Positions 24,787-36,151 of a stretch of DNA of 42,424 nucleotides are shown here, one piece after another (within the stretch, counting starts at the first letter, position 1; each line of letters begins with the position of its first letter). The DNA is from a virus (taxonomy: Duplodnaviria; Heunggongvirae; Uroviricota; Caudoviricetes). The stretch is from positions 1 through 42,424 of IMG/VR virus record IMGVR_UViG_2563366953_000006, one strand, 5' to 3'. Made by a program: the position numbers and the translations under genes. Under the pieces are notes generated by a model. That model searched no databases. It saw nothing but the letters and a program-made list of their open reading frames with translations, and had not been told where the DNA came from.

Positions 24787-25545
24787 TTATTTTTTCTTCT
24801 TATTTAACTTATCTAAATTGACGGGATCTTTCCCTGTGGCAGCTAAACACCAAAAAGAATAACTCTTTTGCATGACATAGGTTCTAATTCTCTCTAATGT
24901 TTCATTATATTTTTTCTCAACAACCTGTATCGCATGTTCAAATAAATTAATCATATCAACATGCTCGTCCTCGACACCAATCATGCTCAGTTGTTTTCTA
25001 TCTGTCACTGCTTGATAAAATGTTTTCCCATTTTTCCTTATTAGTAACAATGAAGTTTCTGCTGACTCATAGTCTTGGTTGCCGCTATGTGCTGCAAAAT
25101 TATGCCTGTAGTTAATAATACAGTCATGCAACCCAAAATATTCAGAATCAAGCCAATCACGCTCCATCTTTAACTTTCTCCCTTTAGCTTCAGAGAAAGC
25201 TTTACCATAAAACGTTAGGCTTGCCACAAATAACGCTCTAATTTCACTTGATAAATCTAGATCAAGTATATTCCCGTATAACTTGCCATCTGTCCTTAAT
25301 TCGTTTCTCCCTGCCAGTTCATTAGCTATTTGGTACCACTCTTTAGCACTTTTTAAGTCCCTATGAATTAGGGACAGTGAAGATGCTCTATCGGCAATAC
25401 GCCCACTCAATTTTATGCGATCTACAATTTCATTATTGAATGTATAAACCGCTTTAAATTCCCCCGTTTCGGAATCAATATAATATTCAACATCTAACCC
25501 TTCATATGATTCACACCCGGGACCTTCTAATTTTTTTCTTTTCAT
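24787..25545 (-). CDS. AT-rich orphan gene, hypothetical 252-aa protein (moron; candidate accessory/defence function)
   Basis: Single ORF sitting between Rz and the HNH/terminase block; composition visibly more AT-rich than the flanking phage genes; no recognisable family from sequence. Confidence 0.6.
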   Translation of the reverse strand: MKRKKLEGPGCESYEGLDVEYYIDSETGEFKAVYTFNNEIVDRIKLSGRIADRASSLSLIHRDLKSAKEWYQIANELAGRNELRTDGKLYGNILDLDLSSEIRALFVASLTFYGKAFSEAKGRKLKMERDWLDSEYFGLHDCIINYRHNFAAHSGNQDYESAETSLLLIRKNGKTFYQAVTDRKQLSMIGVEDEHVDMINLFEHAIQVVEKKYNETLERIRTYVMQKSYSFWCLAATGKDPVNLDKLNKKKK

Positions 25546-25626: not shown

Positions 25627-26091
25627 TTATTTTTCACACTGACTAGAGATATAGTCCTGCAATGCTCTTATCTGTTTATAACTGATTTCAATTCTCTCTC
25701 TGAGGGTGAAATAATCCCGTTGAGCGGTGTCAGTAAGTCGGGGGGCGGTAGCATCATCCAGGCTGGTGGTAATGGTCGTTGATTGCACTCTCGGGCAACT
25801 AGCGGCGAGGAACAGCCGCTTAGTGCCAACAGCAACATCACGCTGAAGCTGTTCAATAGTTGCTTTAGCATTTGCAAGTTCTCCGGTGTATTTCGCATCG
25901 AGCGCAGAAACATCACGCTGGCGCTGCTGCATCTCAGTAATGGTGGCGTTCGCCTGGCTGAGTTTTTCCTTCGCTTTATCGCGCTGTTCTTTGTAGGCGA
26001 TGGCGTTATCACGATAATGATTAACAGCCCATGATAGGCAGACGATGGTGCAGATAACCAGAGAGGACAGAATCGCAGTTACTCTACTCAT
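25627..26091 (-). CDS. Rz-like i-spanin
   Basis: N-terminal TM helix ([23 protein letters not shown]) then coiled-coil; immediately after the endolysin; contains an embedded +1-frame lipoprotein ORF. Confidence 0.8.
25668..25838 (-). CDS. Rz1-like o-spanin (lipoprotein) embedded in Rz
   Basis: [14 protein letters not shown]... has a lipobox (LSGC) and is proline-rich; fully nested in the Rz gene in another frame. Confidence 0.7.
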
Positions 26092-26566
26092 ATAGCTGAA
26101 TTTCTCTGACCGTTCCGCCCGATTCTTTGAATTTTTCAATCAGGCTGTCAACCTTATGTTCGAACTGACCATAACCAGCGCCCGGCAATGACGCCCAGAT
26201 ATTGCTGCAACGATCAATAGCCTGACGGATATCGCCGCGATCAATCATCGGTAAAGCACCACGCTCTTTAATCTGCTGCAATGCCACAGCATCCTGGCTT
26301 TTTGGAGAGAAGTCTTTCAGCCCAAGCTGCTTACGGTAAGCATCCCACCAGCGTGAAAGAAGCTGATAACGTCCTGCGGCTGTTGATTTAAGTTTCGGGT
26401 TTAGCGTGACAAGTTTGCGAGGGTGATCGGAGTAATCAGTGAACAGTTCACCTCCGACAATAACGTCATAACCGTGGTTACGTGTCGGTTGTCGCCCGTT
26501 ATCCGTTCCTTCTGACCATGCCACCATATCGAGGAAAGCTTTACGCTGGGAATTTAGTACCTGCAT
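26084..26566 (-). CDS. Endolysin, lambda R-like lytic transglycosylase
   Basis: [132 protein letters not shown] is near-identical to lambda R as recalled. Confidence 0.92.
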
Positions 26567-26569
26567 AAA

Positions 26570-26896
26570 TTACTCCTTAGAGCCACCAAACTTATTACCG
26601 ATTACTCTCATTGCAGCCCCACGAATAGCATCGACCCCGATCAGCCCAACGCCGCCACCAATGGCAACAGAAAGAGATTTAGGCCATCCGACATACTCAA
26701 GAGCGGATGCAAAAGTCAGCGTCAGAGCACCACAGAGCAAAATCTCGAGCGTTTTTCGTTTCCAGCCACCACCACCGCCAAAATAGGCAATGCGCAAGCC
26801 AGCCATAACGATCGACATAATCACTGCGCCCAGCGGTGTGTCTCCACGCCACCAGCTCTGGACCAACTCCAGCCAGGTATTTGGGTTATGAGGCAT
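26570..26896 (-). CDS. Holin
   Basis: 108-aa membrane protein with hydrophobic segments and a charged C-terminus, directly upstream of the endolysin. Confidence 0.75.
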   Translation of the reverse strand: MPHNPNTWLELVQSWWRGDTPLGAVIMSIVMAGLRIAYFGGGGGWKRKTLEILLCGALTLTFASALEYVGWPKSLSVAIGGGVGLIGVDAIRGAAMRVIGNKFGGSKE

Positions 26897-27039
26897 TTGT
26901 AGTTATCTCTCACCTCGCTGATACAGCAGGTGCAAATTGAGGGAACATCATGTACCGCAAATCAGAAGCGGAAACATCAAAGAAGCCGAACCGATGGAGA
27001 ACTGCGGAATAGGCCAGGACCAACGAATCCCCAGCCACA

Positions 27040-27075
27040 GAAACGACAAAACCCGCTCGACGGCGGGTTTAAGCT
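27040..27075 (-). terminator. Candidate late-operon terminator (tR'-like) upstream of the holin
   Basis: Minus-strand hairpin AAACCCGCCGTCGAGCGGGTTT followed by TTTGTCGTTTCTGTGG. Confidence 0.4.
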
Positions 27076-27192
27076 GTGTGGCGAAGTAACCACTCTTAAC
27101 AGATTACAATGTTTTTTGCGGACCGCGCTAATGATTTCCTCTTTTTTTTGTTGTATTTTTCACACGGTTGCTAAAATTATTTCGGATCGATA

Positions 27193-28134
27193 ATGAGTAC
27201 AGAAAATAAGAATAAAACCAGGCGAGTGAGAGTTGGTTTTTTCACTGGTAATGGAAGCAAAAAAGATGGCACATCTGCTGCAAAACTAGCCTTTGAGCAA
27301 ATGACCACAGCAGATACTGTAACTTTTCCAATAACTTACACAACAGACACCCCAAATCGAGGGTTAAAGTTAGTTATTCTTCAAAAAGATACCACACTGC
27401 AATGTTACTTTGGTTACGTATCGTGGAGAAGGGAATGCCTACTACCGTTCATCGAGGATGCTACAGGTAGTGAGAGAACAATTCCTTTAAATGATAAAGA
27501 TTCTGTAGTTGAAAGAACATATTTTATCTATTACTACGAAACGGACTTATTAGCTATGACCCTCAACCATATAGGGCCCAAAGTAAATGATCTGGCATTC
27601 ATTTTGTATAACAAAACTGATTTAAAAAGCGTCACTTTTGAAGCCATTTGGAAACAAGAGAGCATGAAGGAACTGCTTGAGGACGGAAATATCCTACGTA
27701 GTTTCGATCTTATAGTTGCTGCTCCAAGAAACTTTAACAAAGCTAATTATAAGATTAAAAACCCTTTAGCTAATGAAATTATTGACATGGTTGTTGGTAT
27801 GGGCGGGTCGCATCTAAGATTAAATATGCGAGGTCGGATTCGCCCGAAAAAACAAGGGTTTAACTATCTAAAAACTTCTGTCACCGATGCTATTAAGGAA
27901 CTACTTGAACTTTTTCCAAAAGGTTCTGGAGGTCTAAAAATTAAAAAAATTGATGTAACAGAGCCATCCAATAGAACGCCCAAAAGTCTACTTGACCAAG
28001 TATTGGTCAGTACAAAGACAATCATTGTCAAAAGCGGTTATCCATCCGATTCTGATATCAGAACGGCGATGATATCTGCTAAAATTGATAACGCGAACTA
28101 TCTTGCACAGTATGAGCTCGCTAGCAGAGACTAA
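27193..28134 (+). CDS. Hypothetical 313-aa soluble protein, first gene of an AT-rich two-gene cassette (candidate defence/abortive-infection sensor)
   Basis: ORF on the strand opposite to all late genes, in the Q-to-lysis moron position; no Walker A motif and no recognised domain; followed 9 bp later by a 4-TM protein gene. Confidence 0.65.
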   Translation: MSTENKNKTRRVRVGFFTGNGSKKDGTSAAKLAFEQMTTADTVTFPITYTTDTPNRGLKLVILQKDTTLQCYFGYVSWRRECLLPFIEDATGSERTIPLNDKDSVVERTYFIYYYETDLLAMTLNHIGPKVNDLAFILYNKTDLKSVTFEAIWKQESMKELLEDGNILRSFDLIVAAPRNFNKANYKIKNPLANEIIDMVVGMGGSHLRLNMRGRIRPKKQGFNYLKTSVTDAIKELLELFPKGSGGLKIKKIDVTEPSNRTPKSLLDQVLVSTKTIIVKSGYPSDSDIRTAMISAKIDNANYLAQYELASRD

Positions 28135-28155
28135 TAACCAAGCATGGAGGACACA

Positions 28156-28605
28156 ATGAGAGAATTAGCCACTTTTCTCTGGAAATGCGTCCTCTGGATT
28201 CTGTTGACCTATGCAGCGACAAAACTGTTTAAACCGATGAAGCATGCTGACGTACTCACAACAGCGGGGGTGCTCTCGACTATATCAGGCATCCTGTTTG
28301 GTTTTGTTCTGGCTGCAATATCTATATTTAGTAGTGCAAACAGCGATAAGGAAGGAGCAATTAATGCCCTTAAGCAAAACAACGTGTTACCAACTCTGGT
28401 AAATAGATTACTTTCAACAGGGTTAACTCTCATCGTCGCATGTATATTTCCATTGATAGCGATGTTTCTACCTGATGATGTTATTGTTGCGGGCAAACCT
28501 ATTGATTTCCTGTTCATACTGTTAGGCTTATCCTCCCTTATAATTTCGCTATATACCTTCGGAAGGTGTTGGTTAGTGTTACGAAAAATCTTCCCCCACT
28601 TGTGA
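28156..28605 (+). CDS. Small polytopic membrane protein (4 predicted TM helices), second gene of the cassette (candidate membrane effector)
   Basis: Four hydrophobic stretches (res ~8-27, 38-62, 88-108, 120-146 of the 153-aa track ORF); start placed at MRELATF (28156), preceded by GGAGG; track start is 28144. Confidence 0.65.
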   Translation: MRELATFLWKCVLWILLTYAATKLFKPMKHADVLTTAGVLSTISGILFGFVLAAISIFSSANSDKEGAINALKQNNVLPTLVNRLLSTGLTLIVACIFPLIAMFLPDDVIVAGKPIDFLFILLGLSSLIISLYTFGRCWLVLRKIFPHL

Positions 28606-28640
28606 CAGGTTGGCCTCATATGGGGCCAACCTGTGCAACC

Positions 28641-29009
28641 CTAAGCGTCCATTTCAAGGTTAACATCCAACATTGAAAGGCAACCATCAATAAATCCTTC
28701 GGCTAGTTGTATTTCTATGCGTACCAATTTTTCATCCTTTCCACGCACCTTTGCAATCTTACGCTTGGATATTCTGTATAAATAATGTGCCACAAGCAGC
28801 GAGTGCTCATCTGGCTTTTTTTGCTTTAGACGAGCAAGACAACCTTCAATAATTAATGCATCACTATCTGAACAAGCCTGACGTGTTTTGCTTGTGTAGG
28901 GAAGAAGCCCCTTAAACCCAGCAGCTATAGGCGAATAGTCTACTCCAGAACTATCACTCGCCGCCCATGCTCCCCAACGCTCCAGAACCATCTGAATATC
29001 ACGCATCAA
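28641..29009 (-). CDS. Antitermination protein Q-like (small Q family)
   Basis: 122-aa protein at the junction of early and late regions, upstream of the lysis genes; resembles the short prophage Q family as recalled. Confidence 0.55.
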   Translation of the reverse strand: MMRDIQMVLERWGAWAASDSSGVDYSPIAAGFKGLLPYTSKTRQACSDSDALIIEGCLARLKQKKPDEHSLLVAHYLYRISKRKIAKVRGKDEKLVRIEIQLAEGFIDGCLSMLDVNLEMDA

Positions 29010-29023
29010 CTTTCTCCACCAAA

Positions 29024-30019
29024 TCAGGCCAACACCCCAATCGCCAGCGCGCGATCGATAAAACGAAATATCAGCTCCAGTTGGGAGCCATACTTCTCTT
29101 CAAATGCCACGGTATCCGCATGCAGCTCGTCGTGATGCTTTCTGCACAAAGGCAACACAAAGAGGTCATGCGCTTTTGTACCCATTCCACCCTGACCGTG
29201 ACCTATCAGGTGGTGGGGATCATCAGCAGGCTTTCCACAACATGCACACGGCTGTGTCTTAACCCAGCGCGTGTACTTTTCATTAACCCAGCGGCGGCGT
29301 TTTGGGCGTAACATAAAAGACTCCAGCGACTCCGGATCCACTTTCAGCGCCAGCACCTTTTTCGCTTTATCCTGGATAATGCTGGTGGCAGGAACCGAAG
29401 GCACAAGGTCACTTTCCCGGGTGACCGCCTGCACAACAGGCTTCGGTAATCTCAGTGCCTTACGGGCTGCACTTTCCGGTAAGGCATCCGCCAGGTCATT
29501 ACGAATCAGCCACCAGCACAGTTCCGGTATTGTCACAACGTGACTATCATCAAAACCGAGATCCCGACGCACAACAGACAACACCCAGCGGGCACAGTTA
29601 TCCGTTGCCATTGATTCCAGCCGTTCCGTGAACTGATCGCGCAGCTGGTTATCGCAGTGCCAGCACAAACGGATTGCGCCCGGAGCGTGTCGCATTGTTG
29701 TCATGTTCTCGCTGTGCCAGTCGGAATGAGGCCACTGGCAGCCTTTTTCACGAAGTAACCAGCTTTCAAGACATTCCACGCCACCAGCACGACGGATCAC
29801 TGCCTCATTGCGGAATACGGCCCGAACGGCAGGATCATCCGCCAGCGGTTGTGATGCCGCCGGAACGGCACCACTGGCGAAAGATGAATAACGTTCCGGC
29901 TCAGGCTCCAGCAGGACACGCCCCTGCATAAACAGGGGCATCAACTCTGAACCTGGCCTGAACAATACGATCCCCATACGCGGGGCAATTTCAGGGGTCA
30001 GTAGTGCTCTCACGGTCAC
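29024..30019 (-). CDS. DUF968-family prophage protein with C-terminal HNH-like Cys/His cluster
   Basis: 331 aa; C-terminus CACCGKPADDPHHLIGHGQGGMGTKAHDLFVLPLCRKHHDELH; conserved partner of Q in lambdoid prophages (family assignment from memory). Confidence 0.55.
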   Translation of the reverse strand: MTVRALLTPEIAPRMGIVLFRPGSELMPLFMQGRVLLEPEPERYSSFASGAVPAASQPLADDPAVRAVFRNEAVIRRAGGVECLESWLLREKGCQWPHSDWHSENMTTMRHAPGAIRLCWHCDNQLRDQFTERLESMATDNCARWVLSVVRRDLGFDDSHVVTIPELCWWLIRNDLADALPESAARKALRLPKPVVQAVTRESDLVPSVPATSIIQDKAKKVLALKVDPESLESFMLRPKRRRWVNEKYTRWVKTQPCACCGKPADDPHHLIGHGQGGMGTKAHDLFVLPLCRKHHDELHADTVAFEEKYGSQLELIFRFIDRALAIGVLA

Positions 30020-34884: not shown

Positions 34885-35577
34885 ATGAACATAGGAAACC
34901 GAGTCAGACAACTTCGCCAAGCGAAGAACATGAAAATCGCCGATCTCGCTGAAGCGATAGGAGTAGATGCGGCGAACATCTCGCGCTTAGAAACGGGTAA
35001 GCAAAAACAATTTACCGAACAAACACTGAGTAATATTGCCAAGAGCTTAGGTGTTGATATTGCTGATCTCTTTACCTCTGCCCACAAAAGTAATACTGTA
35101 TATAAAAACAGTAATAATGAGGATGTTGCGCAGGTGAAGGATGTGTTCCGTATTGAAATGCTGGATATCAGTGCCAGTGCGGGAAATGGCCTTATCCAGG
35201 GCGGTGATGTCATTGATGTGATTCATGCCATCGAATACAGAACTGATAATGCTGTATCAATGTTCGGCGGACGACCAGCCAATCACATCAAAGTTATCAA
35301 CGTTCGTGGGGACAGTATGTGTCCAACCATTGAGCCAGGAGATCTCATCTTCGTTGATGTCAGCATCAATCAGTTTGATGGTGATGGTATATATGTCTTT
35401 GGTTTTGATGATAAAATATACGTTAAAAGACTTCAAATGATTCCTGACAAACTGCTGGTGATTTCTGATAACCAGATTTACCGTGAATGGGGAATTACTA
35501 GCGAAAACGAACACCGATTCATGGTCTTTGGAAAGGTCTTAATCAGTCAGTCGCAAACCCTTAAGAGACATAATTAA
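34885..35577 (+). CDS. CI-like repressor (N-terminal HTH plus C-terminal S24 LexA-like peptidase)
   Basis: HTH at N-terminus (IADLAEAIGVDAANISRLETGK); C-terminal VRGDSMCPTIEPGDLIFVD...YVKRL carries the Ser/Lys dyad. Confidence 0.88.
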   Translation: MNIGNRVRQLRQAKNMKIADLAEAIGVDAANISRLETGKQKQFTEQTLSNIAKSLGVDIADLFTSAHKSNTVYKNSNNEDVAQVKDVFRIEMLDISASAGNGLIQGGDVIDVIHAIEYRTDNAVSMFGGRPANHIKVINVRGDSMCPTIEPGDLIFVDVSINQFDGDGIYVFGFDDKIYVKRLQMIPDKLLVISDNQIYREWGITSENEHRFMVFGKVLISQSQTLKRHN

Positions 35578-35622: not shown

Positions 35623-35629
35623 CCTATAA

Positions 35630-35670
35630 ATTTGCATATCTCGCAAATATCACTTGCATATCTCGCAATT
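35630..35670. promoter_or_regulatory. Tandem 15-bp direct repeats (candidate operator/promoter for the plus-strand early operon)
   Basis: TTGCATATCTCGCAA occurs twice, 9 bp apart, just downstream of the cI terminator. Confidence 0.45.
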
Positions 35671-35875
35671 TAATTTTATCTTTTGTTCCAGACCAACTAC
35701 AGGATTACAACAAAATCTGGTTGCAACACGGTGCATGTGTCGTAAGCAGTCAGTAAATGTCAAAAACGAACAGGCAGGACGCCCACGAAGTAGCCGCCTG
35801 GGGCATATGAAGTCCAGGATGATTCGTTGAGTCATGTTGTGCCACTAGGCACTCATGTTAAAGCAGGTGTATGAA

Positions 35876-36151
35876 ATGAAAGTCCAGATTTTAAACAATA
35901 ACTGTGAAGTCGTTTGGTCATACGACATAGCCGCCCCTGTAGATCAGAGCGGCGATAGCTGGACCAATGGGAAACATCAGATTATGGCTGGAGTTGTGTT
36001 CTCTTTACGCCGTGCTTTGGAACAGGCTGAAGTATTTCCATCAGACCCTGAATGGAAATGGCCTTTTTCTATTTGTCCAAATTCGGAGAGCACATTTCAG
36101 AAAATTGGTCAGAAAGTCGCACTCGAAGAGCATCAGCCAACTGTTTCCTGA
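35876..36151 (+). CDS. Hypothetical small protein (early plus-strand operon)
   Basis: Start at MKVQIL with AGGTG 7 nt upstream; overlaps a convergent minus-strand ORF so only one may be real. Confidence 0.3.
   Translation: MKVQILNNNCEVVWSYDIAAPVDQSGDSWTNGKHQIMAGVVFSLRRALEQAEVFPSDPEWKWPFSICPNSESTFQKIGQKVALEEHQPTVS

Follow-up and report, generated by a model that had tools for sequence, protein, structure and literature searches.

The stretch of DNA analysed here (the window: 42,424 nucleotides, IMG/VR record IMGVR_UViG_2563366953_000006) is a lambdoid prophage whose rightward genes, early and late alike, are encoded on the minus strand. Its immunity region encodes a CI-like repressor on the plus strand (34885-35577), upstream of the locus considered below, and Cro-like, CII-like and O-like genes are found on the minus strand of the same immunity/early region. 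Two copies of TTGCATATCTCGCAA downstream of the CI-like gene (35625-35680, plus strand) resemble leftward operator sites, and the ORF next beyond this pair (35855-36151, 98 aa) does not resemble N. In the late direction, a DUF968/HNH gene (29024-30019, minus strand) precedes a gene for a 122-aa Q antiterminator of the QuuD/phage-21 type (28641..29009, minus strand; PF06530 Phage_antitermQ, E 7.7e-52; phrog_79), with the ATG at 29006 as its possible true start. Convergent with Q are two plus-strand genes, encoding a 313-aa protein (27193..28134) and a 153-aa membrane protein (28144..28605), the latter ORF beginning 9 nt downstream of the former gene. A gap of 296 bp separates the 313-aa gene from a holin gene of the lambda S family (26570..26896, minus strand; PF05106, E 5.7e-25), after which endolysin and Rz genes follow in the late direction; the annotation of E. 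coli genomes with identical sequence has a lambda-family holin and a glycoside hydrolase here. Immediately beyond the lysis genes, a 252-aa ORF (24787-25545, minus strand; phrog_8440, a family of unknown function; no Pfam or PADLOC match) is possibly a further accessory gene, set between the modules for lysis and packaging.

Within the gap upstream of the holin, the minus strand carries a hairpin at 27070..27049 (AAACCCGC-CGTCGA-GCGGGTTT) with an 8-bp stem, five pairs of which are G-C, and a 6-nt loop. Directly 3' of it stands TGTCGTTTCT, and 153 nt separate its 3' end from the holin ATG (26896) downstream. On the transcribed strand this is a G+C-rich stem-loop followed by a U run, the anatomy of an intrinsic terminator, and upstream on that strand stands a Q gene of a recognised family. 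As a single sequence it rises barely above chance: alone it folds at -12.0 kcal/mol (z -2.0 against shuffles, with equally good folding in 8 of 200), and a scan of 5 kb found seven terminator-like sites against 4.7 +/- 2.3 in shuffles. What sets it apart from chance is its conservation across relatives. All 34 unique variants of the element have a G+C hairpin and then a T run, with 16 different loop sequences between them; covariation in the stem was uninformative as a test because the stem hardly varies. In the window the tail reads UUUUGUCGUUU, an interrupted U-tract whose first three U can also pair with the AAA of the stem. The original prediction had reported a terminator-like hairpin with a U-tract about 150 bp upstream of the holin and likened it to a tR' element: the hairpin is indeed there, and its conservation behind Q genes supports the likeness. 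We conclude that 27070..27049 is the tR'-type terminator (27039..27070 with its T-rich tail, minus strand) of a phage-21-like, Q-dependent late control module.

That module occupies 27039..27131 on the minus strand and comprises, in order, a -35 element, a palindrome, an A-tract, a -10 element, a predicted start, a transcribed region and the terminator; the promoter-terminator element occurs once in the window. At its centre lies the conserved discriminator and initial transcribed region (27073..27100, minus strand), presumed to hold pause and Q-loading signals, and represented by the 28-mer GTTAAGAGTGGTTACTTCGCCACACAGC (27100..27073), which is found exactly in at least 119 viral contigs of IMG/VR and with one base different in E. 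coli K-12. Wherever there was enough upstream DNA, a PF06530-type Q gene lay upstream of the 28-mer on the same strand (103 of 103 loci). The distance from the Q stop codon to the motif falls into two classes: 53-60 nt in 26 of these loci, where the junction is empty, and 543-3786 nt in the remaining 77, where it holds cargo. In all 77 cargo-bearing loci, the promoter, palindrome and terminator stand together on the far side of the cargo.

The boundaries of the insertion in the window are given by comparison with the cassette-free phage 1720a-02. In blastn, window positions 27048-27147 and 28646-29100 match segments of that phage only 10 bp apart (locus L001, 1501-1600 and 1611-2065), and its module abuts the Q stop codon; the segment 27148..28645 of the window is therefore an insertion between Q and the module. 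It contains, on the plus strand, the promoter region of the cassette, its two genes and a 3' hairpin. A diverged version of both cassette genes occupies the same place in phage cdtI, E. coli G12 has an identical cassette with extra genes on the late side, and the arrangement of the window is present in 39 complete E. coli genomes. Further afield, prophages of Pectobacterium and Rahnella keep the palindrome, the A-tract, the TAnnnT hexamer and TAAGAGTGGT beside a cassette of this kind; these loci (L125 4680-5010, L127 4400-5010) lack the close terminator, and hence the short-RNA design is not universal in this Q family. The first terminator-like hairpin in Rahnella lies about 430 nt downstream.

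The comparative data also locate the promoter within the module. When 37 unique upstream sequences were right-anchored on GTTAAG, the hexamer immediately 5' of it (TAATCT in the window, 27101..27106, minus strand) showed T in 35 of 37, A in all, three variable positions and a final T in all. This TAnnnT pattern reads as the -10 signature of a sigma-70 promoter, with the predicted start at the A of GTTAAG[A]G seven nucleotides after it (about 27094, minus strand). The -35 (TTAGCG, 19-nt spacer) is weak. An A/T tract lies upstream of the -10, and an A-rich stretch at about -45 to -38 is kept despite the unrelated cargo beyond it. A consensus scan that required at least four of six matches in each hexamer called neither this promoter nor that of the cassette; the former was missed because its -35 is poor, and we therefore relied on the comparative data. 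Relative to the predicted start, the terminator hairpin falls at +25..+46 with the U-tract ending near +50. A convincing sigma-dependent pause element was not found downstream of the start; the candidates, TAAGAG at -4..+2 and TGGTTACTT at +3..+11, are weak. Readings of TGTAAT as the -10, or of TAnnnT as a pause element, were rejected, only the TAnnnT register being conserved and fitting the start mapped in K-12.

This start comes from the orthologous element of the DLP12 prophage in E. coli K-12 (GGTTTACGTACGTAAAAAATTGGTTATGCT-GTTAAGAGTGG...), whose Q clade, palindrome and cargo are not those of the window. Coordinates at the DLP12 locus differ between U00096.2 and U00096.3 by what we take to be 777 bp. 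A plus-strand start at U00096.2 576452 is among those listed in the accessible part of the Cappable-seq data that Ettwiller et al. (2016; PMC4782308) published as a supplement. After the shift, it coincides with the A of GTTAAG[A]G, seven nucleotides after a -10 of TATGCT, and is thus equivalent to position 27094 of the window; as a cross-check on the shift, the neighbouring listed start at 576081 then falls exactly 7 nt after TATTAT. The start at 576452 is weak (relative read score 1.7); short terminated RNAs of some 50 nt may be poorly represented in libraries of the Cappable-seq type. Among the starts listed in that part of the supplement, no plus-strand start falls in the 540 bp after quuD. 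The start at U00096.2 576081 (about 3859 in locus L124) is a strong one, with a listed score of 90, and is divergent from nmpC, about 370 nt upstream of the pR'-like start of DLP12. The supplements of an eLife 3'-end study and of SMRT-Cappable-seq held no entry for the DLP12 site, and a literature search on the conserved 19-mers and on quuD/essD late promoters returned nothing useful. On the evidence of the orthologue, then, a sigma-70 promoter appears to lie between Q and the terminator and to fire toward the late genes, as expected of a pR'.

To our knowledge, the pR'-tR' unit of this Q family has been dissected only in a distant relative, phage 21, whose late regulatory unit was reportedly the subject of a structural study by Yin et al. 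in 2019. We took the elements of that unit (Q21, pR', the Q-binding element or QBE, a sigma-dependent pause element and the terminator) from the curated record OL657228.1. There the -35 begins 7 nt after the Q stop codon and the start site lies 42 nt after it; the QBE consists of two direct 8-bp repeats between the -35 and -10, the pause element TAAGCTG occupies +2..+8, and the terminator spans +3..+50 of the pR' transcript. The window shares much of this geometry: The Q proteins belong to the same Pfam family, a DNA element (a candidate one in the window) is situated between the -35 and -10, about 50 nt separate the start from the end of the terminator, and the lysis genes lie downstream. In phage 21, as in the cargo-free relatives of the window, the late module stands directly after Q, whereas the window has 1.5 kb of cargo between the two. 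The differences are equally clear. The Q proteins are only distantly related (122 aa in the window against 162 aa in phage 21; phmmer E 0.002, a weak match, against the Q21 structures 6p18/6jnx), the -35 is weak in the window in contrast to TTGACA in phage 21, and the candidate binding site is an inverted repeat rather than direct repeats. Likewise, TAAGAG of the window resembles TAAGCT of phage 21 but stands at -4..+2, with no clear pause element at +2..+8.

The inverted repeat in question is the perfect palindrome GCGGTCCGC (27118..27126, minus strand; about -32 to -24 of pR'), which we consider a candidate Q-binding element. Clustering of the Q proteins at 70% identity divided 99 loci into four clades: clade 0, to which the window belongs (62 loci, nine cargo types and the empty state; palindrome GCGGTCCGC), clade 1 (33 loci, 12 cargo types; GCGTACGC), clade 2 (three loci, three cargo types; TTTACGnnCGTAAA) and clade 3 (one locus, one cargo type; GGAATTCC). 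The association of Q clade and palindrome is complete over the 99 loci, with the palindrome in the same position in all four clades; that of clade 0 occurs in 62 of 62 loci, in three of them with one base changed. What is transcribed, terminator included, is common to all four clades. A specificity element for Q would show such a pattern, and the palindrome at 27126..27118 may well bind Q. The association could also reflect linkage instead of binding; these loci do not separate the two, because no cargo is shared between different Q clades among the 24 cargo clusters.

Taken together, these features lead to the proposal that 27039..27131 is very probably the entire unit for late control in a lambdoid prophage with a QuuD/phage-21-type Q, upstream of which the cassette has been inserted. 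Without Q, RNA polymerase starting at pR' would make an RNA of about 50 nt ending at tR'; Q loaded near the promoter would let the polymerase pass tR' and enter the lysis genes (holin, endolysin and Rz). The predicted 56-nt RNA, with a 5' hairpin followed by the terminator, is itself structured (z -3.1), and this could instead point to a constitutive small-RNA gene, or to a terminator of early or Q transcripts, with the late genes controlled elsewhere; in cassette-free phages the terminator would indeed also end transcripts of the Q gene. We regard such an origin as very unlikely, in that a Q gene and late genes flank the element in every case, the palindrome upstream of it differs from one Q clade to the next, and its geometry copies the experimentally defined pR'-tR' unit of phage 21; an E-value search of Rfam over 26000-29500 matched no family. 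The element is an unstudied example of the well-known Q/pR'/tR' kind.

The position of this module bears directly on the relationship between late transcription and the cassette. Classical lambdoid pR' promoters follow Q closely, and here only 28640..28606 lies directly after Q; a late promoter at about 28640..28610 would send Q-modified transcripts antisense through both cassette genes. However, a cargo-specific hairpin, absent from cassette-free relatives, takes up the 35 nt that follow the Q stop codon, and the consensus scan called no promoter-like site there or anywhere on the minus strand from 28640 to 27148. Given in addition the conserved module beyond the cargo in every cargo-bearing locus and the listed K-12 start at the module rather than after quuD, we hold a late promoter beside Q to be extremely improbable. 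The original prediction had left the late promoter open between 27075..27192 and the vicinity of Q: The former location is favoured by our results and the latter loses ground. It had further suggested that, were the promoter near Q, Q-antiterminated late transcripts would run antisense across the cassette and couple its expression inversely to lytic growth, an idea it would have given up if the promoter and qut site mapped entirely within 27075..27192. The conserved -10, the palindrome, the K-12 start, the geometry shared with phage 21 and the place of the module directly behind Q in cassette-free relatives put the promoter and the candidate qut there; together with tR' they lie within 27039..27131. 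Because the late direction leads from the cassette to pR', transcripts modified by Q would start beyond the cassette and never cross 27148..28645, and the antisense proposal finds no support. The cassette genes themselves would be transcribed away from pR' from their own promoter, ending in a strong hairpin that faces Q.

This hairpin (28605..28634) has a 13-bp stem, is part of the inserted cargo and lies between the convergent Q gene and cassette, from the last base of the cassette stop codon to 6 nt from the Q stop. It folds at -27.1 kcal/mol on the plus strand (z -6.1) and at -21.4 kcal/mol on the minus strand (z -4.1), and lacks a U/T run on either strand. Owing to the missing U run, early transcripts expressing Q might continue antisense into the cassette. 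Such rightward early transcripts would pass the hairpin and proceed across the cassette until stopped by Rho or at tR', an arrangement that would coexist with the late control module. In its favour, many other cargos have bidirectional terminators here, whereas this hairpin lacks a U run on the minus strand, and Q lies on the same strand as the Cro-like, CII-like and O-like early genes, upstream of the cassette. Against it, an antiterminator like lambda N was not recognised, the pL-proximal 98-aa ORF belonging to a family of unknown function and not being arginine-rich; the polymerase might nevertheless be halted or delayed by a G+C-rich hairpin of 13 bp; and untranslated antisense RNA is a typical substrate of Rho. 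We consider read-through of this kind less likely than not.

Convergent transcription at the 3' end of Q has a counterpart in lambda, where paQ produces an antisense RNA that targets Q; in phage 21 a CII-dependent paQ is annotated within Q. The original prediction proposed the reverse, with late RNA antisense to the cargo, and the position of pR' excludes such an arrangement for late transcripts. Cassette transcripts that pass the hairpin at 28605..28634 would be antisense to Q in the lysogen, which recalls the paQ of lambda and phage 21.

The products of the cassette are not readily recognised by sequence. The 313-aa protein has no Pfam or PADLOC match; its homologues are found across Enterobacterales, and some of them are named DUF6731 or carry PF20505, making it a distant relative of that family, on which a literature search yielded nothing useful. 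A DUF6731-type gene occupies the same slot, antisense to Q, in Pectobacterium and Rahnella, and in three of the four loci read from these genera a homologous small ORF of about 150 aa follows it. In a structural comparison the top match of the 313-aa model (pLDDT 71.9, moderate confidence) was the RexA/RdgC fold; the model appears to have the split globular and dimerisation domains of the RdgC-related RexA fold, and its secondary structural relatives (CHL4, IML3, CENP-N and RdgC) are the same as those reported for RexA. The 153-aa partner belongs to phrog_8552, has no PADLOC match and only a sub-threshold match to DUF4064 in Pfam. By inspection it has four hydrophobic helices, as does the 144-aa RexB, so that a small polytopic membrane protein is encoded directly downstream of the RexA-like gene. 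The cassette thus parallels lambda RexA/RexB in that a gene for a soluble protein is followed by one for a small four-helix membrane protein, in being borne by a prophage and in being placed for expression in the lysogen. It differs from lambda rex, which lies in the immunity region downstream of cI, in standing at the junction of Q and pR' with a candidate promoter of its own (TTGTTG, 18-nt spacer, TAAAAT; 27148..27177, plus strand), read from the sequence and situated back to back with pR'. Neither cassette protein showed sequence homology to lambda RexA or RexB (hhalign probability 0.5%, BLASTP E 0.83). We therefore describe the cassette as RexAB-like in its architecture and modelled fold, not as a demonstrated member, and predict that it might act in exclusion.

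The slot that the cassette occupies is used widely. Long Q-pR' junctions (loci L004-L122) hold at least 24 distinct, unrelated cargo clusters besides the empty state, with a G+C content of 0.29-0.42 and with genes antisense to Q in nearly all types. Several match candidate defence systems in PADLOC, namely PDC-M68A (HNH), PDC-S33, PDC-S20 (KAP NTPase), PDC-M53A, which has a small membrane partner, and a HEC-04-like ATPase that adjoins a C5 methyltransferase; another is an Lc/NmpC-type porin. Most other cargos have a hairpin, often a bidirectional terminator, at their Q-proximal end, which suggests a general design that insulates the cargo from Q transcription and vice versa. With unrelated cargos between conserved flanks, signals of their own and atypical composition, the junction has the properties of a prophage hotspot for morons and defence genes. 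A limited literature search found no description of such a hotspot at the lambdoid Q junction. The label of candidate defence cassette given by the original prediction gains weight from this, since the 313-aa protein is modelled with the RexA fold and the slot also holds candidate defence genes.

Precedents for the arrangement are lc of phage PA-2 and nmpC of DLP12 in K-12, which occupy the same slot in the same orientation, antisense to Q, and, as in the window, point away from this conserved promoter-terminator element, which precedes the lysis genes. The gene order in DLP12 (quuD, nmpC in antisense, the element, essD) is the layout of the window, with the distinction that in PA-2 and DLP12 the cargo is a porin accompanied by another Q clade and palindrome, and in the window a two-gene RexAB-like cassette. 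A more far-reaching reading, to which we give little credence at present, is that the junction in QuuD-type prophages is a dedicated, orientation-constrained defence hotspot whose cargo is on in the lysogen and off at the onset of lytic growth. The cargo promoter would then adjoin pR' in the opposite orientation, no more than about 25 bp from the palindromic, clade-specific Q-binding site, and the cargo, such as the RexAB-like pair, could be switched off by occupancy of that site by Q or by traffic of RNA polymerase at the shared control region. A palindromic QBE would further imply that Q recognises DNA as a dimer, unlike the Q proteins of lambda and phage 21. Alternatively, the switch might depend on early-operon read-through past the U-less hairpin, not on late antisense RNA.

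Recognition of the late control module fixes the point at which late transcription begins in this prophage, and an appealing regulatory idea turns out to lack foundation. A further outcome is a precise, testable map of pR' and tR' (the -10, the start, the candidate palindrome and the terminator) for a widespread family of Q proteins that includes QuuD of K-12. The few base pairs between Q and pR' emerge as a frequently used slot, which accommodates porins, candidate defence genes and, in the window, a RexA-fold/RexB-like pair. This junction is useful both for the mining of defence genes and for understanding how cargo stays transcriptionally apart from the lysis genes.
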